Assembly: GCA_003022865.1 (NCBI GenBank)
Contig: PXSK01000036.1
Span: 63,122 to 127,121 of the forward strand
Origin: Halobacteriales archaeon SW_5_70_135
Lineage (GTDB): Archaea; Halobacteriota; Halobacteria; Halobacteriales; SW-7-71-33
Direction of reading: 5' to 3'
DNA: 64,000 nucleotides
The position numbers were made by a program, and so were the translations under genes. Within the stretch, counting starts at the first letter, position 1, and each line of letters opens with the position of its first letter. Positions 217-57,015 of the stretch are shown one piece after another. The notes below the pieces were generated by a model. The model ran no database searches and was not told the DNA's origin. It saw nothing but the letters and a program-made list of their open reading frames with translations.

Positions 217-271
217 GCTCGCCGGTGTGACAGCGGCATTGGTAAATCCTTGCCTCCGCCGCCGAGGGTAA

Positions 272-766
272 TGTTCAGATCAGCAGCTGCTGATGGAGAC
301 ACTGGTGGTGTGGAGAGCCAGAAAGCCCCCGACGGCTCGCCGACTGCGACTCGCTGCGCTCCTCACTCACTCCGTTCGTTGCGGTGTCCTCGCGCGGTTG
401 CACCGCGCGAGCGGGCCGAGGCGGCTCCGCCGCCTCGCGGCTTACATCGGCTCGCCCGGCGAGCCGCCAGCCCCTTTCAGTCCCACCCGGCCGACGTTTC
501 CCAGGGCGGGACCGAAAGGGGCCGACGTGCTGCGGGAAGCACGGTGATGCAAGCACCATGCTCAACTCGCCGGAGGCGAGTTGGCATCTCAGGAGACTCG
601 TGAGTCTCCTGACGAGTCCGCAAGAGCGAAGCTCTTGCGAGATCCAGCAAATCTTCGATTTGCGCGACAGCGAGCACAGCGAGCGAGGAGCGCAGCGAGC
701 CGCGCAACCGCAGCACGTCGGGGGCTTCCTGGCTGTTGAAGTTAGTTTCGATCGCCAATCTGAACA
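272..766. repeat. Hairpin-array repeat element, copy 1 (MITE-like, non-coding)
   Basis: Perfect 9-bp terminal inverted repeat TGTTCAGAT (272-280) / ATCTGAACA (758-766). Subterminal inverted blocks GCCAGAAAGCCCCCGACG / CGTCGGGGGCTTCCTGGC. The interior is a chain of short perfect hairpins. Long blocks are shared with 46709-47566 and 26751-27432. Track ORFs over it (275..793-, 293..547+, 477..758-) have junk-like Arg/Pro/Ser composition. Confidence 0.8.
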
Positions 767-875
767 GTACCGCCGCCGGGACCGCGACCGCAACCGCTTA
801 GCCGTGCCCGCCGCATCTCCGACCGTGCCACGTGTCGAAGAGACCGACCCCGAGGGCGTCGACTACGGCTGGGTG

Positions 876-1109
876 ATGCAGACCACCTTCGTGCTCACGA
901 TCGTCCTCGGCGCCCCGGTGGTGGGCCTGCTCGCCTTCCTCCGGCCGCTGCCGACGTGGACCGCCCGCGCCGGCTTCGCCGTCCGCGTCGGCGCCGTCGT
1001 CTGGCTCGTCACCGCCGTCGGCGTCTACCTCTACGCTCGCCGGACCGATGTCGACGCCGACGCCGGAGCCGCCAGTCACGCCGACGAGGACGGCGACGCC
1101 GACGGGTGA
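876..1109 (+). CDS. Small membrane protein, two predicted TM helices, acidic C-terminus (hypothetical)
   Basis: C-terminal part of track ORF 384..1109. MQTTFVLTIVLGAPVVGLLAFLRPLPTWTARAGFAVRVGAVVWLVTAVGVYLYARR... is hydrophobic and plausible, whereas the upstream part lies in the repeat. ATG at 876, with an alternative in-frame GTG at 825. Confidence 0.45.
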   Translation: MQTTFVLTIVLGAPVVGLLAFLRPLPTWTARAGFAVRVGAVVWLVTAVGVYLYARRTDVDADAGAASHADEDGDADG

Positions 1110-13922: not shown

Positions 13923-14007
<85 letters not shown>

Positions 14008-14126
14008 ATCCTGCGGCGAGTGACGCGCGAGCCGCAGGTGCGTGCCGAGGATTCGAATCAACGAGCGGGAGGTGAGTGACCGCAGGGAGCGAACGGGAGC
14101 GAGTGAAGTTCGAATCCGGTCCCACG
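14008..14126 (+). repeat. tRNA-Leu(GAG) tail: 8-bp hairpin, degenerate T-loop copy, homologue of the 45-nt tRNA-Leu(CAA) insertion, and a perfect 20-nt duplicate of the tRNA 3' end
   Basis: GTTCGAATCCGGTCCCACGC occurs at 13987-14006 and again at 14107-14126. Blocks 14062-14078 (GAGCGGGAGGTGAGTGA) and 14086-14101 (GAGCGAACGGGAGCGA) are identical to 49179-49195 and 49209-49224. GGATTCGAATC is at 14048-14058. The hairpin is CCTGCGGC(14009-16)/GCCGCAGG(14030-37). Confidence 0.8.
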
Positions 14127-22291: not shown

Positions 22292-23358
22292 CCGGGGACG
22301 CGCCCGCTCCCCGGCCGGCGACCCGTGCCCGCGGACCCTCGGCAGCGACCGTGCTGTGCGTGCTCGGGGTCTTCGTGGCGGTGCAAGTCGGGGCGCTTTC
22401 GCTGGCGGCGCCGTTCGCCGGCGACGGCGCTGGCGCCGGTGCCGGCGCCGTCGAGAACCCCGGCGACCCCGTCTTCGGCGTGGTGTACCTCGCCGGCGTG
22501 CTCGTAGTCTCGGGCGCGCTGCTCGTCGCGGTGCGACGCGGCGCGACCTGGGTGCTGCGTGGCTTCGCCGTGTTCGCCTCGGGGCTGCTGTCGTGGTTCG
22601 TGCTGGCCTCGCTGCTGCCGGCGCTGGGCTCCGGCGTCGTCGGACCGCTGGTGACGGTCCACGTCCCGGCGACGGTCGGCGCGCTGGCGCTGGTGGTCGC
22701 CCTGCTGGTGCGCCCGGAGTGGTACGTCCTCGACCTCGTCGGGGTGCTGACCGGGGCGGGTGCGGCCGGCCTCGTCGGCGTGACCCTCGACGTGCTCCCG
22801 GTGCTCGTGTTGCTCGTGACGCTGTCGGCCTACGACGCCGTGGCGGTGTACGGCACCGGGCACGTGGGCGCGCTGGCCGGCGGCGCCGTCGAGTCCCGCG
22901 CGCCGGTACTGTTCGTCGTTCCCGGCGACCGCTCCTTCTCCTATCTCCACCGCGACGACAACGACGATGACGACGGTGACGGCGACGGCGACGGCGAGGA
23001 GCGACCGCCGAGACGGCCCGACGGCGGCCGACCGTCCGCGTCGGCGTCGCCGCCCGGCGGCGCGCTGTTCATTGGCATTGGCGACGCGGTGTTGCCGACG
23101 ACGCTGGCGGTCAGCGCCGTCGCCTATCTGCCGGCGCCGCTGTTCGACCTGCCCGGCGTGGCGCTGTCGCTGCCGGCGCTGAGCGCCCTCCTCGGCACGC
23201 TGGCCGGTCTGGGCGTGCTGCTGTGGGCGGGCAGAGGCGGCCGCGCACACGCCGGCCTCCCGCCGCTGAACGGCGGGGCCCTCCTCGGCTATCTCGCCGG
23301 CTCGCTGGCCGCCGGCGTCCCGCTGGCCGAGGCCCTCGGCGTCGCCGCTTACCTCTGA
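22288..23358 (+). CDS. Presenilin / signal-peptide-peptidase-like intramembrane aspartyl protease (A22 family), paralogue 1
   Basis: Multi-pass membrane protein with YD (LSAYDAVAVY), GxGD (GIGDAVLP) and a PAL-like motif (HAGLPPLNGG). Has a long acidic loop, DDNDDDDGDGDGDGEE. ATGA overlap with gar1. Confidence 0.8.
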   Translation: MTGDAPAPRPATRARGPSAATVLCVLGVFVAVQVGALSLAAPFAGDGAGAGAGAVENPGDPVFGVVYLAGVLVVSGALLVAVRRGATWVLRGFAVFASGLLSWFVLASLLPALGSGVVGPLVTVHVPATVGALALVVALLVRPEWYVLDLVGVLTGAGAAGLVGVTLDVLPVLVLLVTLSAYDAVAVYGTGHVGALAGGAVESRAPVLFVVPGDRSFSYLHRDDNDDDDGDGDGDGEERPPRRPDGGRPSASASPPGGALFIGIGDAVLPTTLAVSAVAYLPAPLFDLPGVALSLPALSALLGTLAGLGVLLWAGRGGRAHAGLPPLNGGALLGYLAGSLAAGVPLAEALGVAAYL

Positions 23359-23417
23359 CTCCGATTCCGGGACCCGCGGACGACACGCACTTGTCCCGTC
23401 CCGCCGCAGAGTCGGCC

Positions 23418-24473
23418 GTGAGCGACACGAGAGACGCCGACCGGCGAGAGACGCCGGACGGCGAGGCGGTGGCCGACGTCGACCTCGACGCCGACGGCAG
23501 CCGGTCCGACGCGGGCGTGTACGACGAGCGGGGGGGAGCCACCGGGGAGACGGCGGCAGAGAAGACGTTCGAGCCGCTCCCCGCCGCCGGGATTTTCCTG
23601 CTGTACGCGCTGACGGTCCTCGGCGGGGTGGCGCTCATCGGCCCGTACCGGGCCGCCGGGGTGCGGGCGTTCGAGGACCCCACCGCGCTGTCGAACGTCG
23701 CGCTGATCGTCGCCGAGGTGCTGGTCGCGACGCTGCTGCTGCTGCTCGCCTTCCGCTCCGACCGCGCCGAGGGGGTGGTCCGGCTGGTCGTGCTCGGGGC
23801 CGTCGCCGTGCTCGTCCAGTCGCCCGTCGGCGTGTTGCTGCCGGCGAGCGTGCCCGCGCCGGGGCTGGTCGGGCCGGCCGTCGGTGCGGCCGTCGCCGGC
23901 GTGCTGTGGGTCTACCCGGAGTGGTACGTGATAGACGCCGCGGCGGTCGGCTTCGGCGCCGCCGCCGTCGGACTGTTCGGGGTGAGCCTGTCGCCGCTGC
24001 CGGTAGTCGCCCTGCTGGTCGTGATGGCCGTCTACGACGTCTACTCGGTGTACGTCAGCGAGCACATGCAATCCCTCGGCGGCGGCGTCGTCGGCCTGAA
24101 GCTGCCGATGGTGTTCGTCGTCCCCGTCGACCGGGAGTTCTCGCTGCTGGCGGTCGACGACCTCGCCGACCTCTCCGAGGGGGCGATGCTGCTGGGCGTG
24201 GGCGACGCCGTCTTCCCCGGGATGCTCGCCGCCAGCGCGCTCGCCTTCCTCGACGCGCCCGCCGTCGTCGCCGGCCTGAGCCTCCCCGTCCTGGGCGCGC
24301 TCGCCGGCGCCGCGGTCGGCTTCGTCGCGCTCGAAGTTCTCCTGTTCGCGGTCCGGCGCACCCACGCCGGTCTCCCCGCGCTCAACGGCGGCGTCCTCGC
24401 CGGCTACCTCGCCGGCTCGCTGGCCGCCGGCGTCCCGCTCGTCGAGGCGCTCGGACTCGCGCCGTACCTCTGA
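23418..24473 (+). CDS. Presenilin / signal-peptide-peptidase-like intramembrane aspartyl protease (A22 family), paralogue 2
   Basis: YD (VMAVYDVYSVY), GxGD (GVGDAVFPG), PAL (HAGLPALNGG). The C-terminal 40 aa are nearly identical to paralogue 1. Start is tentatively GTG 23418, since there is no in-frame ATG upstream of the first TM. Confidence 0.75.
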   Translation: MSDTRDADRRETPDGEAVADVDLDADGSRSDAGVYDERGGATGETAAEKTFEPLPAAGIFLLYALTVLGGVALIGPYRAAGVRAFEDPTALSNVALIVAEVLVATLLLLLAFRSDRAEGVVRLVVLGAVAVLVQSPVGVLLPASVPAPGLVGPAVGAAVAGVLWVYPEWYVIDAAAVGFGAAAVGLFGVSLSPLPVVALLVVMAVYDVYSVYVSEHMQSLGGGVVGLKLPMVFVVPVDREFSLLAVDDLADLSEGAMLLGVGDAVFPGMLAASALAFLDAPAVVAGLSLPVLGALAGAAVGFVALEVLLFAVRRTHAGLPALNGGVLAGYLAGSLAAGVPLVEALGLAPYL

Positions 24474-24580
24474 CGTTCCGGAGCGCTCGTCGAGCCGGGA
24501 AACCGGCAGACAGCGACGGCCCAGTTTCACTTTCACCCGGATTGGCGTCGGTTGAAGCAGGCGGCGCTCGTGGTGGCGGT

Positions 24581-26750: not shown

Positions 26751-27432
26751 CAGCAGTTGGTGTGCTTGAAGCGCTCGGCGCACTCATTGCTCATCGCTCT
26801 CGATTCTTCTGACGAGTCCTCCGAAGCCCTCGGCACGCTCTCCTCAGTTGCTTTCGATCCCGTAGTTGCGTCCTTCGAAGGGCGAGGCACGCTCGACGCC
26901 GCTGACTCGCTGCGCTCCTTACTGCGTTGCGGTGCTTACGTCGTCAGCGACGGTCAACCGTGCCTCGCCCTTCGAGTCTATCGGAACGGCGGAGCCGTTC
27001 CGGTCGCCCGAAAATCGCTCAGCGATTTTCGCAGGCCACCAGGTGTATACGGCGGCGAGTACTCCCCATGCCTCCCCGCCCGGTCGGTGAGTGTGCTCGG
27101 TCGGCTCGCCGTTGCTCGCCGGCTCGGCGGTTACACCGCCTCGCTTGGCGGCGCGTGGCGCCGCCCTCTCCTCGCACGTATCGACCGGGCGCAGCCTCGT
27201 TGCAGGGCGCGCGAGCAACGCGCGAGGGCCGAGAGGCGGCTGGGGAGGGCGAGGCTGCGGTGCGGTCGGGCGGGACTGAAAGAGGCTGGCCCGTTCGGGG
27301 TTCGTCGTGACGCAAGCACCGTGCTCAACTCGCCTCCGGCGAGTTGGTATCCAGCAGAACTTCGATTTGCACGACAGCGAAGCGAGGAGCGCAGCGAACG
27401 AGGTGCCCCGAACGGGCCGGGGGCTTTCTGGG
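26751..27432. repeat. Hairpin-array repeat element, copy 2 (degenerate; termini eroded)
   Basis: Shares blocks with copies 1 and 3 in the same order and orientation: CAGCAGTTGGTGTG; GACTCGCTGCGCTCCTTACTGCGTTGCGGTG; GCAAGCACCGTGCTCAACTCGCCTCCGGCGAGTTGG; CTTCGATTTGCACGACAGCGAAGCGAGGAGCGCAGCGA; GGGGGCTTTCTGG. It lacks the ATCTGAACA end. Confidence 0.7.
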
Positions 27433-27540
27433 ACCCCACAGCAGGATCGAGAGAGTCACAGACAACCGAAACCGCCGAACGGGGGGACATTCCAGACCGA
27501 CGCAGGAGAGTCGAGAGCGAACGCGGACGACCGGGTCACC

Positions 27541-27654
27541 TTTGCGCTTCAAAGGGGCAGTTTGTGCGTCAAAGCCGCCAGTATCTGCGTTTTCACGTGC
27601 GAACTACCGATCGGTCCGGGTTTTCGCGCGCGAACAGAAATTTCGTACGCGAAA
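27541..27654 (+). promoter_or_regulatory. Five helically phased TTT-N7-(A/G)AA boxes upstream of folCP
   Basis: TTTGCGCTTCAAA (27541), TTTGTGCGTCAAA (27561), TTTCACGTGCGAA (27591), TTTCGCGCGCGAA (27622), TTTCGTACGCGAA (27641). Spacing is 20/30/31/19 bp. The last three are palindromic. Confidence 0.4.
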
Positions 27655-27695
27655 CTGGTCCCCGAAACGGGCCAGCGGCGTGGCGTGCCGAGAGG

Positions 27696-46577: not shown

Positions 46578-46708
46578 CCGGGCGACGGTCGTCGGGACGC
46601 GACCGGACACCCACACTACGGACGGAGCGGCCGCTCATCGGGCGGGCTCGCGACACGCCCTCTCGCGACCCGTGCCGACGGTCGAACTGTCGTCGGTGCG
46701 GACGGCAG

Positions 46709-47566
46709 TGTTCGGATTAGCAGCTGCCGATGGAGATACTGGAGGTGTGGAGAGCCAGAAAGCCCCCGGCGGCTCACCGGCTGCGACTCGCCGTGCTCCT
46801 CGTCAGTCACTTCGTTCCCTTCTGCGGTGCTTGAGTCGTCGCCAGAAACCTGCGGGTTCTGGCTGGCTCGAAAATCTTCGATTTTCGAACGTCTCGCTCG
46901 GCGAGCCGCCGGCCCCTCTCGGTCCCGCCCTGAGAAACGTCGGCCGGGCGGAATCGAAAGGGGCCGGCGTGCTGCGGGACGCACGACGAAGCGAGCACCA
47001 TGCTCAACTCGCTGGCGGCGGGTTGGCATCTCAGGCGACCCGCGGGTCTCCTGACGAGTCCGCAAGAGGAAGCTCTTGCGAGATCCAGTGAATCTTCGAT
47101 TTGCGCGACAAGCGGGAGAGCGAAGCTCTCCCGGGCAGCGCGGAGGGAACCTCCGCTGACCCTCGGGCTCCGCCCGAGGACAGCCGGGCGGCGGAGCCGC
47201 CCGGCGACAGCGAACGCAGTGAGCGAGGAGCGCAGCGGGAGACTCGACGAGTCTCCCTGGCAGCCGGGCGCTATGCGCCCGGCGACAGAGAGGCGCGTAG
47301 CGCCTCTGGCAACAGGCGGCGGAGCCGCCGGTGACAGCGAGCCGCGCGACCAGCGAGGCGCTACGCGCCTCGGGCAGCCGGCGTTGACGAGAGCGAAGCT
47401 CTCGTGAGCCAATCAGAGTCGGAGGCTCTGATGACGTTCGTCAGAGCTCCGCTCTGACGGGCCAGCCAGAACCCTGCGGGTTCTGGTGACGGCGAAGCCG
47501 CCGGCGACGCAGCACGCCGAGGGGCTTTCTGGCTGTTCAACGCTGTTCCGGTCGCCGATCTGAACA
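46709..47566. repeat. Hairpin-array repeat element, copy 3 (longest; more than 20 consecutive hairpins)
   Basis: Termini are TGTTCGGAT (46709-46717) / ATCTGAACA (47558-47566). It shares left, central and right blocks with copy 1 and carries an extra segment of about 350 bp (about 47105-47500) made of perfect 7-10 bp stems with 3-nt loops. All overlapping track ORFs look non-coding. Confidence 0.8.
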
Positions 47567-47618
47567 GTACCGGTCGCGACACCCCGATGCTTAACCGGGC
47601 GCCCCGCGGAGCACGCGC

Positions 47619-48904: not shown

Positions 48905-49119
48905 GGGGCAGGATGTAAAGCCTCTCGGAACGCGGCGGCGCACACGACGGTCGGACGGGGCGACAGTGGTACCGTGAGGCGGCCGCCGGCAGGAGCGCGG
49001 ACGAGCGCGTTCGACCGGAGGACCTCGGGTACGCGGGACTGGGGCTGGGGGCTGGGGTGATACGACCGGGCGGAGAGTCGCACCGCTTAACTCGACGGCC
49101 CTCACAGCGGTGACTGCCT

Positions 49120-49250
49120 GCGGGGGTAGCCAAGCCTGGAAACGGCGGCGGACTCAAGATCCGCTCCTGTAAAGCAGGGAGCGGGAGGTGAGTGAACGCC
49201 GACGGCGTGAGCGAACGGGAGCGACCGTGGTTCGAGTCCCGTCCCCCGCA
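49120..49250 (+). tRNA. tRNA-Leu (anticodon CAA) carrying a 45-nt insertion in the T-arm (putative non-canonical intron)
   Basis: Acceptor stem GCGGGGG/CCCCCGC plus A73. Anticodon arm GCGGA-CUCAAGA-UCCGC, with anticodon at 49155-49157. Variable arm CCUGUAAAGCAGG. T-stem 5' strand GCGGG (49181-85) is separated from T-loop UUCGAGU (49231-37) and the 3' strand CCCGU (49238-42) by 49186-49230. TATA-like GCTTAACT about 30 nt upstream. Confidence 0.75.
49186..49230 (+). other. 45-nt insertion in tRNA-Leu(CAA) between positions about 53/54 (boundary can slide by 2 nt because of GG repeats)
   Basis: AGGUGAGUGAACGCCGACGGCGUGAGCGAACGGGAGCGACCGUGG. It contains an internal hairpin ACGCCG/CGGCGU. Removing it restores a standard 86-nt class II cloverleaf. 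It is homologous to 14064-14106. Confidence 0.6.
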
Positions 49251-55036: not shown

Positions 55037-57015
55037 GCGGCGACGACCCGGCCGACGGACCGCCAGCCGCCGCACCCGGGGCCGCTCCGGAGGCCGACGA
55101 CGCCGGTCCCGACGGCGAGGAAGGTAGTCGGCGGCACACCGGCGCCTCCGGAGAGGACGGCCACGGGAGCAGCGGAAAGAACGAGGACCGCGGAAGCGAC
55201 GAAGAGAGCGAGGACCACAGGAGCGACCGAGAGAGCGAGGACCGCGGGAGCAGCGGAAAGAGCGAGGACCGCAGGAGCGATCGGGAGAGCGACGAGACTG
55301 GCGAGGACGGGGCGGAGACGGCGAGTCGGCGGGGCGTCGAGACCGCGGGACGACGACTCCACCCGCTGTCGGTGCCGTACAGGGCGGTGACGCGGGCGCT
55401 CCGGCCGTCGACGCTTTTGATCGTCGTCACCGCCGTCGGACCGGGGTCGCTCGACCCGCAGTCACTCACCTTCATCGGGCTGTTGCTCGCCGGGCTCGCC
55501 GCCACTTTCGCGTACCAGTACGGCTACTACCGACGGTTCAGGTTCGCCCTGACCGACGACACGCTCGACGTCGCTTCGGGCGTACTCTCGCGGCGCAGTC
55601 GGGAGATACCGCTGCGACGCGTCCAGAACGTCGACGTGGGACAGAACCCGCTCCAGCGGGCGATGGGGATCGCCGCGGTGCGGATCGAGACCGCGGGCGG
55701 CGGCGACACCGAGGCCGTCCTGGAGTATCTCGGCCGAGAGGCCGCCGAACGGCTCCGCGACGACCTCCGGCGAGCCGCCAGGCGAGCGCGGGCGAACGAC
55801 GGCGAGGTTGAGGTCGGGGCCGAGGCCGGGACGGCCGACGAGGCGGAGCCGGGAGTCGACGAGACCGTCGGGGGCGAGGGCGAGAGCGAGAGCGAGCGCG
55901 AGGAGGTGTTCGCGCTGTCGCGCCGGAGCCTCGCCGTGGTCAGTCTGTTCAGCTTCGACGCCGGTGCGGGCGTGATATCGAGCGTCGTGGGCGTTCTCCT
56001 CAGCGGCGGTGACCCCTCGAACCTCGTCGGCGTCGGCCGGGTGCTGGCCGACCTGCCGCTGGGGCCGGTCGAGACGGCCGTCATCGGCGTCGCCGCCGTC
56101 GGCGTGCTCGCCTGGCTGCTGAGCGTCGTGCTCACCGTCGCCCGCTACTACGGCTTCCGGCTGGTCCGCGTCGACGAGGGACTGGAGTACGAGCGCGGAC
56201 TCGTCCAGCAGTACTCCGGCACCATTCCCGTCGAGAAGGTCCAGACCGTCTCGCTACGGTCGGACCTGGTTCACCGCCGACTCGGCTATCTCGCCGTCGC
56301 CGTCGAGACGGCCGGCTACTCGCCGGGCAGCGAGCGCAGCGCCCGCCAGCTCGCCGTGCCGCTCGCCCCGCGCGCCGAGGCGCTGCGGGTGGCTCGTTCC
56401 GTCGAGCCGTTCGCTGTCGACGACGACGAGGACGACGCGGAGGCGACGTTCGGACTGGAGCGTCCGCCCCGGCGGGCGCGACGCCGGTACGTCGTCCGGT
56501 TCGCGCTGGCCGTCCTCGCGCTCACGGGACTGGCGGCCGTCGCGCTCGGACTGCTGACTGCCAGGGGTGTCGGCCCGGGACTGGCGGTCGACCGTCGCCT
56601 GCTCGCGGCGCCGCTGGCGGCGCTGCTGCTGACGCCGGTCGCGGCACACCGCCGCTGGCGGAGTCGCGGACACGCCGCCGGACCCGAGCATTTCCTCGCC
56701 CGGACCGGGTACTGGCGGCGCGTCACTCGAGTCGTGCCGTACTACCGCGTGCAGACGGTGATCGAGTCTCGCACGCCGTTCCAGCGGCGGCGACGTCTCG
56801 CCAGCGTCACCGCCGACACCGCTTCCTCGGCCAGCCTGCTCGGCGGCGAGGCCGTCGCCCTCGACGTCGACGTCGACCGGGCCGTCGCCCTCCGGGAACG
56901 TCTCCGGACCGAACTCGACGGGGCCATCGGGGCGCGAGCGAGCGACCGGGAGCGACCGGAGGAGGCGCGGAACGCCGACGGCGACGACCCCGCCGGCGGT
57001 CAGACGTCGGGGTGA
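55033..57015 (+). CDS. YdbT-like membrane protein with three bPH_2 domains and an N-terminal Ser/Glu/Asp/Arg repeat region
   Basis: GTG 55033 overlaps the ydbS stop (GTGA). The motif is repeated (IPLRRVQNVDVGQNPLQRAMG; IPVEKVQTVSLRSDLVHRRLG; VVPYYRVQTVIESRTPFQRRRR). The N-terminus reads GSSGKNEDRGSDEESEDHRSDRESEDRGSSGKSEDRRSDRESDE. Confidence 0.8.
   Translation: MSGDDPADGPPAAAPGAAPEADDAGPDGEEGSRRHTGASGEDGHGSSGKNEDRGSDEESEDHRSDRESEDRGSSGKSEDRRSDRESDETGEDGAETASRRGVETAGRRLHPLSVPYRAVTRALRPSTLLIVVTAVGPGSLDPQSLTFIGLLLAGLAATFAYQYGYYRRFRFALTDDTLDVASGVLSRRSREIPLRRVQNVDVGQNPLQRAMGIAAVRIETAGGGDTEAVLEYLGREAAERLRDDLRRAARRARANDGEVEVGAEAGTADEAEPGVDETVGGEGESESEREEVFALSRRSLAVVSLFSFDAGAGVISSVVGVLLSGGDPSNLVGVGRVLADLPLGPVETAVIGVAAVGVLAWLLSVVLTVARYYGFRLVRVDEGLEYERGLVQQYSGTIPVEKVQTVSLRSDLVHRRLGYLAVAVETAGYSPGSERSARQLAVPLAPRAEALRVARSVEPFAVDDDEDDAEATFGLERPPRRARRRYVVRFALAVLALTGLAAVALGLLTARGVGPGLAVDRRLLAAPLAALLLTPVAAHRRWRSRGHAAGPEHFLARTGYWRRVTRVVPYYRVQTVIESRTPFQRRRRLASVTADTASSASLLGGEAVALDVDVDRAVALRERLRTELDGAIGARASDRERPEEARNADGDDPAGGQTSG

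Follow-up and report, generated by a model that had tools for sequence, protein, structure and literature searches.

A probable IS6-type miniature inverted-repeat element with a covarying, hairpin-rich interior in Halobacteriales archaeon SW_5_70_135

What are the three hairpin-packed repeats that lie between genes in a 64,000-nt stretch of Halobacteriales archaeon SW_5_70_135 (contig PXSK01000036.1, positions 63,122 to 127,121; below, the window), and by what route did they arrive there? They are called here copy 1 (267–771, 505 bp), copy 2 (26846–27431, start approximate) and copy 3 (46704–47571, 868 bp). The original prediction, made from the sequence of the window, described an intergenic, hairpin-rich, non-coding family similar to MITEs (miniature transposable elements with inverted repeats), which was borne out, and placed it nearer to repetitive extragenic palindrome (REP) arrays, bacterial interspersed mosaic elements (BIMEs) or elements mobilised as single-stranded DNA than to a classical MITE, which was not. 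The repeats are very probably copies of a non-autonomous MITE with ends of the insertion sequence (IS) family IS6 (ISH14/ISH15/ISH29 type), mobilised in trans and enlarged by accretion of hairpins; the family assignment follows from IS6-like ends, 9-bp target duplications and empty sites taken together.

The terminal inverted repeats (GGYANTGTTCRGAT...) of copies 1 and 3, first noted as 9 bp, are real and extend over 14–17 bp. In copy 1 they were located at 267–283 (+ strand, GGTAATGTTCAGATCAG) and 755–771 (− strand; reverse complement, read from 771 to 755, GGTACTGTTCAGATTGG), in copy 3 at 46704–46720 and 47555–47571 (GGCAGTGTTCGGATTAG and GGTACTGTTCAGATCGG); written as pairs they read GGTAATGTTCAGAT / GGTACTGTTCAGAT (copy 1) and GGCAGTGTTCGGAT / GGTACTGTTCAGAT (copy 3). 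L048 and L049, two intact IS6 elements of 697 bp for which a 211-aa IS6-family (DDE) transposase is annotated, end in GGTACTGTTCAGATAAG / GGCATTGTTCAGATTAG and GGCAGTGTTCAGATAAG / GGCATTGTTCAGATTAG, respectively, the right end being also read as GGCATTGTTCAGATTAGCTG; the ends of the window copies share at least 14 of the first 17 positions with the left and right inverted repeats (IRL, IRR) of both. The 5' repeat of copy 1 resembles the IRR and aligns with its reverse complement in L048/L049, GGCATTGTTCAGATTAGCTG; the 3' repeat resembles the IRL and is identical in 14/14 positions to that of L048, GGTACTGTTCAGAT. Size, transposase length and repeats of L048 and L049 fit ISH14, ISH15, ISH29 and ISHarch12-14 as tabulated (PMC6807381). 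With the 5' end of the related locus L021 as query, the first 18 nt matched a Haladaptatus plasmid (L047) 18/18 (short BLAST), at the end of a decayed or deleted IS6 copy whose gene fragments read as IS6-type transposase; tblastn with such a fragment matched 72 plasmid records of haloarchaea, and in many of these the annotation reads 'IS6 family transposase'. A known transposase partner, which the original prediction had named as evidence that would speak against it, is thereby indicated, the ends matching IS6 elements with an annotated transposase.

Target duplications of 8 bp (ISH14 and ISH29) and 9 bp (ISH15) are given in ISfinder (PMC6807381). Direct repeats of 9 bp were found at the flanks of the metagenome locus L038 (TGGCGTCGC / TGGCGTCGC, 9/9), of copy 1 (258–266, GCCGCCGAG; 772–780, GCCGCCGGG; 8/9) and of copy 3 (46695–46703, GGTGCGGAC, decayed; 47572–47580, GGTCGCGAC; 6/9). 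Termini and duplications bear directly on the view that the repeats are mobilised as single-stranded DNA, either as a palindrome-associated transposable element (PATE) derived from IS200/IS605 or as a REP/BIME array served by a Y1 transposase of the REP-associated tyrosine transposase (RAYT) type. The many subterminal and internal hairpins, their clustering in arrays as in BIMEs and the abundance of PATEs in haloarchaea (PMC3119063) agree with it; however, PATEs and IS605-type elements have neither terminal inverted repeats nor target duplication (Dyall-Smith et al. 2011, PMC3119063), whereas both are present here (14–17 bp and 9 bp), the ends match those of a DDE-transposase IS family, and the hairpins do not follow one REP consensus. 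No RAYT link was seen at the element, although no search aimed at RAYT genes was made. We regard this origin as very improbable.

Orthologous loci in close relatives were reached via homologues of the flanking genes. For copy 1, an empty site was found in the metagenome-assembled genome (MAG) Halobacteriales archaeon SW_7_71_33 (L052) and in a second contig (L053), with flanks 94–97% identical: a 91-nt panB–DUF5822 spacer (...CCTCC GCCGCCGCC GCGACCGCAACCGCTTAGCC) contains the duplicated 9-mer once and lacks the element. For copy 3, L043 and L042 (both flanks 96.5–98% identical) carry 66 nt in place of window 46595–47568, with GGTCGCGAC present once and the element absent; in more distant relatives the spacer at this site is 70 nt (L045, without the element) or 214 nt (L044). 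The search for empty sites that the original prediction had proposed thus succeeded for both copies, and there is insertion polymorphism between genomes 94–98% identical. These clean or near-clean empty sites, with the direct repeats (9/9 in L038, 8/9 in copy 1) and the IRL/IRR match, reverse the earlier preference for a REP/BIME or single-stranded-DNA element over a MITE.

A local segmental duplication, not a mobile family, would account for the presence of only three copies in 64 kb, and a scan of species-representative genomes with the core pattern GCTCAACTCGCNNNNNGCGRGTTGG gave nothing relevant (three chance bacterial matches only); that pattern, however, is a lineage-specific inserted hairpin, and the explanation, the probability of which we put at practically nil, is excluded by the duplications and empty sites, by the IS6 ends and by related loci that number in the dozens in other organisms.

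Copies 1 and 3 are colinear homologues composed of ordered blocks in the same orientation (BLASTN against the window: 272–364 with 46709–46801, 89%; 451–669 with 46893–47110, 85%; 709–772 with 47508–47572, 83%), and for them the predicted block order stood. Copy 2 gave short blocks only (27307–27351 and 27349–27380); it became legible as a complete but degenerate copy once the conserved motifs of the family were known. The central ~60 nt of copies 1 and 3 also align in reverse complement (88%, BLASTN), hence the core is a palindrome. The predicted subterminal inverted blocks were found again, the 20-mer GGAGAGCCAGAAAGCCCCCG occurring 3 times at ≤3 mismatches against 0 expected. All three copies are present in the strain of sample ERZ27230166 (99.5–99.97% identical), the assembly of which breaks inside copies 1 and 3; its spacer with copy 2 differs by one base (contig L046). 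The orthologous OCD–folCP spacer was sought in order to date copy 2; the nearest relatives differ in synteny. As predicted, no believable open reading frame was found: six long frames across the three copies gave no significant Pfam domain (one weak match, E = 0.089, below the family cut-off).

What do these ends enclose? In a BLAST search of plasmids with copy 1, only window 302–378 matched; the matching sequences are intergenic and carry no annotation (Haloferax volcanii pHV4, Haladaptatus, Natribaculum, Haloarcula, DL31 and Halobacterium DL1). A pattern made from this segment recovered 28 metagenome loci; with L039 as a cleaner query, matches were obtained at 70 places, distributed over 43 plasmid records and >24 genera. 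The recurring unit (~95–120 nt) comprises, in order, GAAAGCCCCCG; P1, a stem of 12 bp in which the first three pairs vary from copy to copy; the motifs GCGACTCGCTGCGCTCCTC and TGCGGTGCTTRCGTCG, by which inner helices are formed; the P1 3' arm; and GGCCCCTTTCAGTCCCACCC. In 'full' elements (L020, L022, L033, L037, L039 and the window copies) the first unit is succeeded by an inverted second one, which has its own, different stem P3; the two GGCCCCTTTCAGTCCC arms form a central hairpin, P2, and GAAAGCCCC pairs with GGGGCTTTC as an outer stem. The cargo is a dyad-symmetric module of an outer stem and three internal stems (P1, P2, P3), not transposase debris.

In copy 1 (all on the + strand), the outer stem is formed by 315–331 (GAGCCAGAAAGCCCCCG, a motif kept in 28/28 metagenome loci) and its complement 719–735 (CGGGGGCTTCCTGGCTG). 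The left (P1) domain occupies 332–466 (P1 arms 332–342 and 457–466; module alignment A3, covariation) with the conserved motifs CTCGCTGCGCTCCTC (350–364) and GTTGCGGTG (378–386) and, according to the hairpin census, two inserted hairpins (389–411, 417–437) and a third (448–466). The self-complementary P2 hairpin, 468–524 (CAGCCCCTTTCAGTCCCACCC ... GGGCGGGACCGAAAGGGGCCG), is kept in L020, L022 and L039; contig L050 of the ERZ27230166 strain ends at it. The right (P3) domain, 523–720 (P3 arms 523–535 and 708–720), contains hairpins at 563–583, 589–612, 619–639 and 647–663 and an inverted B motif, GAGGAGCGCAGCGAG, at 685–699. Copy 3 (+) has its outer stem at 46752–46768 with 47519–47535, P1 at 46769–46779 with 46899–46909, P2 at 46910–46966, P3 at 46966–46976 with 47508–47518, and an array of 12 hairpins at 47113–47486. 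Copy 2 (+) is an old, degenerate full-length module with B/C motifs at 26906–26945, hairpins at 26982–27002, 27009–27031, 27147–27165 and 27326–27346, the P2 3' arm at 27268–27286, P3 at 27288–27300 with 27406–27418, and a variant outer stem (27419–27431). Separately, in L015 (5680–6260) and L036 (7806–8220) two modules stand head-to-head (A− then A+), opposite to the tail-to-tail order in full elements, so that the half-unit acts as a building block in its own right.

Pairing in the module was followed through an alignment of 22 distinct units: 94.4% of cells were paired, with changes on both sides in 10 pairs (45 cells); 0/500 column shuffles reached the observed values, and slid partners were 28–45% paired. 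P3 is perfectly paired yet different in sequence among copies 1, 2 and 3; copies 1 and 3 are distinguished in it by a compensatory change (A-T to G-C), and in copy 3 the arms stand 540 nt apart. Because compensatory changes preserve the pairing of the stems, the module is under constraint in the form of a single-stranded fold, of DNA or RNA. Copy 1 as single-stranded DNA folds far better than shuffles (z = −10.4 for the + strand, −14.9 for the − strand). Mismatches in the stems on the GAAAGCCCCCG strand are mostly A.C (21 vs 7 G.T in one count, 13 vs 6 in another), which places the wobble pairs on the complementary strand; the counts are small and not phylogenetically independent, and this bias is suggestive only.

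Constraint of this kind would be expected if the module were primarily a structured non-coding RNA gene, an RNA leader or a regulatory element merely dispersed by IS6 ends, with P1, P2, P3 and the hairpins as helices and expansion segments of an RNA. In favour are the strongly covarying, compensated pairs of P1 and the inner helices, perfect pairing of P3 across 540 nt in copy 3, the position of the element just 5' of a same-orientation gene start in 5/6 copies with an identifiable 3' end, and a plasmid leader (below) that is conserved like its protein and has compensatory pairs of its own. Rfam searches of both strands at gathering and E-value thresholds gave no family match, only chance-level hairpins of microRNA type; this negative is weak, because the gathering-threshold scan of the whole window returned zero matches and so missed a tRNA-Leu(GAG) found by ARAGORN (13924–14008). 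The loops of the small hairpins, as described next, also disagree with an RNA, being of both orientations on one strand, flipped between orthologous hairpins and of a type usual in DNA; judged from sequence comparison, an RNA would be a rather unlikely explanation of the module. Scans of viral contigs and BLAST against phages gave nothing for the element. Origin recognition boxes or a replication origin, and CRISPR repeats, were considered from sequence alone and dropped, an AT-rich unwinding element and a repeat–spacer architecture being absent.

The interior is as rich in short palindromes as had been predicted: perfect hairpins with a stem of ≥7 bp number 25 in the three copies (2,115 bp) against 97 in the other 61.9 kb of the window, and those with a stem of ≥8 bp and a 3-nt loop 20 against 7 (~84-fold by density). 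The stems of the 25 are diverse, not copies of one REP consensus. Among the three-base loops of the elements (n = 22), 8 are GNA and 9 are TNC (17/22; p = 6e-12 vs 12.5% expected; as compared with 3/17 outside the elements), and nearly all are closed by C-G. C-GNA-G is a hyperstable DNA mini-hairpin motif, and three-base loops closed by C-G are typical of such DNA mini-hairpins rather than of RNA. On identical stems the loop may be flipped (563–583, GGA vs 27326–27346, TCC; also GAGAGC-GAA vs GAGAGC-TTC in different loci); together with the near-equal numbers of GNA and TNC on one strand, this is as expected of a strand-symmetric DNA palindrome, not of a transcribed RNA. Covariation and loop statistics agree with the earlier view that the interior is more than MITE filler.

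What the window copies have in excess of basic elements of ~310–350 bp is perfect hairpins, inserted into the scaffold at a few positions: in copy 1 in the left unit, between GGTG and CTTAC; in copy 3 in the right unit, between GAGGAGCGCAGC and GAGCC, which mirrors the site split in L037 and L038. Hairpins are often paired (L033, L034, L037, L038, copy 1), and related ones vary mainly at the tip (e.g., at a site common to L037 and L038, AAATC-GCA-GATTT vs AAAGACGC-GTA-GCGTCTTT). Target duplications around single hairpin insertions were seen only in L033 (TCAGTCCC), not in L034, L037 or L038, and gave no consistent signature. In sample ERZ27230166 the block at window 47107–47205 occurs with four hairpins (L056, as in the window) and with two (L004 1–55, at the contig end), the latter being near-copies of the next pair that differ in the loops alone; tentatively, the two variants are attributed to population heterogeneity or to another genomic copy. 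Three small hairpins (GGGAGACGCCACGGGTCTCC; GGGAGGCGCTACGGGCCTCC twice) with a GACAG linker were also observed in a related MAG (L044 1620–1790), in the DUF5820–UPF0179 spacer without a MITE; mini-hairpins can thus exist outside the element. Arrays of this sort lend themselves, as a system found in nature, to the question of how GC-rich polyploid archaea acquire and retain perfect palindromes.

Where does the module reside when it has no MITE around it? In at least 8 fetched loci (Haloferax pHV4, two Haladaptatus plasmids, DL31, Halobacterium DL1, Haloprofundus, Natribaculum and the metagenome locus L034) the unit stands at the head of ~550 nt of conserved non-coding sequence, which run up to the start codon for a 285–300-aa protein (L005 2440–3060; L006 2470–3115; also L009, L010, L011, L034, L061 and L062). 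The protein is annotated 'DNA-binding protein', and its C-terminal oligonucleotide-binding (OB) fold matches models of replication factor A (RPA) and single-stranded-DNA-binding protein (SSB) (Pfam, NCBIfam; PDB 2kbn). The leader is conserved about as well as the protein that it precedes and has further helices with compensatory pairs, e.g., columns 406–505 of alignment A4; it gave no Rfam match, a weak negative since the gathering-threshold scan missed a tRNA in the window. In DL31 and DL1 an HNH nuclease gene follows. As ~40 nt upstream of GAAAG are also alignable between plasmid leaders and MITE, the MITE is essentially a pair of IS6 ends fused to leader-type sequence; either a MITE may have been exapted as leader, or a fragment of the leader may have been captured between IS6 ends. 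A derivation of the stretch just 5' of the OB-gene ATG from an IS6 transposase leader was rejected, the similarity being found in Haloferax only.

The plasmid loci suggest a further possibility, that the module is a single-stranded-DNA signal native to RPA-like gene leaders (a single-strand promoter, a priming signal or a platform for SSB-like protein) and that the MITE copies were dispersed and possibly exapted, their palindromes serving as cruciforms or supercoil sinks in divergent promoter regions. The module ~550 nt 5' of the RPA-like OB-fold gene in plasmids of Haloferax, Haladaptatus, DL31, Halobacterium DL1, Haloprofundus and Natribaculum, the excess of A.C over G.T on the gene-sense strand (wobble on the antisense, template strand), the better folding of the − strand of copy 1 as DNA, the DNA-type GNA loops and the location of copies 1 and 2 between divergent genes would all suit such a signal. 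Yet single-stranded transfer or rolling-circle replication of these plasmids is not in evidence, a TATA-like box is not evident in the folded stems, the gene association could be one ancient insertion inherited with the gene, and the wobble counts are small and not phylogenetically independent; such a signal appears decidedly improbable. A wider conjecture, in which a functional single-stranded nucleic-acid structure native to RPA-like SSB-gene leaders was captured by an IS6-type MITE and seeded beside chromosomal promoters, and in which the hairpins stem from an undescribed palindrome-generating process nucleated by C-GNA-G, is quite unlikely in our estimation; if true, the module could be the equivalent in archaea of initiation signals or single-strand promoters, or else a new RNA, large and structured.

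For the IS6-type MITE that we favour, the following course is proposed. An IS6-family DDE transposase encoded elsewhere would bind both ends in trans, and insertion would proceed by the replicative (cointegrate) route known for the IS6 family, followed by resolution. Perfect 7–10 bp hairpins with C-GNA-G or C-TNC-G loops have accumulated on the scaffold, often in pairs and at a few permissive sites, and have enlarged the basic ~310–350 bp element to 505 and 868 bp. At low certainty, the hairpins may be DNA-level palindromes that intrastrand template switching both creates and keeps free of mismatches in the course of replication or of replicative transposition, and the very stable GNA mini-hairpin may nucleate the switching. 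Several observations weigh against this account. A tblastn search of the 64-kb window and of the fetched metagenome loci brought up no IS6 transposase. IS6 repeats are not recognisable in copy 2 and in many metagenomic modules, from which it follows that the module also exists, and perhaps spreads, independently of IS6 ends. The empty site of copy 3 does not correspond to a clean excision and is the less clean of the two because its left flank has diverged, the duplication being matched in only 6/9 positions. Finally, the pairing of P3 across 540 nt in copy 3 is better explained by selection on a long single strand than by local template switching.

The young copies 1 and 3 end ~20 nt 5' of a TATA-like GCTTARCCG, itself ~28 nt before a leaderless start codon, and the element precedes, in matching orientation, a gene start in 5 of the 6 copies with an identifiable 3' IS6-type end (copy 1, copy 3, L021, L024, L038; exception L035); copies 1 and 2 stand between divergent genes. 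This position may reflect tolerated insertion sites or a regulatory effect. In the ERZ27230166 strain (L050) the DUF5822 gene was called as 169 aa with a start at window-equivalent 600, inside copy 1 (window 600–1109), whereas the conserved protein starts at GTG 825 and has 94 aa; the MITE thus misleads automatic gene calling. Contigs L004, L050 and L056 all end inside these elements. The practical consequence is that the elements break metagenome assemblies and mislead gene callers.

Some other features of the window were recorded in passing. Just past copy 2, 5' of the folC–folP fusion gene, five spaced palindromic boxes (27540–27655: TTTGCGCTTCAAA, TTTGTGCGTCAAA, TTTTCACGTGCGAA, TTTTCGCGCGCGAA, TTTCGTACGCGAAA) look like a set of operator sites. 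At 49118–49250 the 5' part of a tRNA-Leu(CAA) is fused to a downstream copy of the tRNA 3' end, and ARAGORN calls none there; a strain 99.75% identical has an intact tRNA-Leu(CAA) and 79 extra nt (L004 1968–2098), and in a related MAG a phage-type integrase adjoins this tRNA gene (L045 2717–4351). The region in the window looks like an attachment-site scar or a deletion. A ~125-nt direct repeat (23237–23359 and 24348–24474, 83% identical) flanks ~1 kb, and a ~98-nt insertion/deletion against strain contig L046 (24494–24497) adjoins it. Tandem repeats of 27 nt stand at 55156–55295 (a 59-nt reference is listed in five copies, four of them spaced by 27 nt, with 76–81% identity to it) and probably code for a repetitive acidic or Ser/Gly/Arg-rich stretch.

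How does the element compare with known systems? The archaeal IS6-family insertion sequences (ISH14, ISH15, ISH29, ISHarch12-14) have nearly identical terminal repeats (GGYANTGTTCAGAT...), 8–9 bp duplications and haloarchaeal hosts; the present element differs in having no transposase and an interior, a covarying module with hairpin arrays, that is unrelated to the IS. ISfinder lists IS6-family MITEs, including MITEHarch3 from the halophilic archaeon DL31, and the basic element (~310–350 bp) is close in size to the 227- and 336-bp IS6 MITEs listed there, the window copies having 505 and 868 bp (PMC7986276, PMC6807381). MITEHarch3 may be a relative, the comparison being by name and size range only. 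Such MITEs are rare in curated collections, two being cited in the 2021 review of the family.

PATEs, the definition of which includes subterminal hairpins with a conserved terminal oligonucleotide (PMC3119063), and other IS200/IS605-type elements are likewise non-coding, hairpin-bearing, heterogeneous in sequence and located in haloarchaeal intergenic DNA; the terminal inverted repeats and target duplication set the present element apart. REP/BIME arrays share with it short GC-rich intergenic palindrome clusters in either orientation, but within a genome REPs follow one consensus and are linked to RAYT genes, whereas here diverse stems lie inside a MITE with terminal repeats.

Correia/NEMIS, ERIC, RUP and BOX elements are long imperfect palindromes, intergenic and near genes, that fold as RNA or DNA and can affect their neighbours; each is essentially one long hairpin. 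The likeness to them is that of intergenic palindromes near genes, whereas nested, independent, covarying stems and an open-ended mini-hairpin array are found here. In the mitochondrial DNA of fungi and algae, double-hairpin elements and GC-cluster palindromes are small, mobile or expanding, GC-rich and often inserted as hairpin pairs into non-coding or structured regions; paired GC-rich palindromes are common to both, but the domain of life differs and there is no sequence relation. In bacterial conjugative plasmids, single-strand promoters and initiation signals (Frpo, ssi) precede ssb in the leading region. Here, too, a long hairpin-rich non-coding region stands directly 5' of a plasmid SSB gene, and the structured strand appears to be the template strand; the likeness is an analogy only, and promoter elements were not identified in the fold.

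Set against these systems, the shell is of a known kind, an IS6-family MITE, and as a family with documented recent insertions in uncultured Halobacteriales it opens a way into IS6-type transposition in archaea. The cargo is of greater weight than the shell: a conserved covarying fold common to dispersed MITEs and plasmid SSB-gene leaders in >20 haloarchaeal genera, without an Rfam family, and joined by arrays of hairpins with GNA/TNC three-base loops, it goes beyond MITEs as described in the literature searched.

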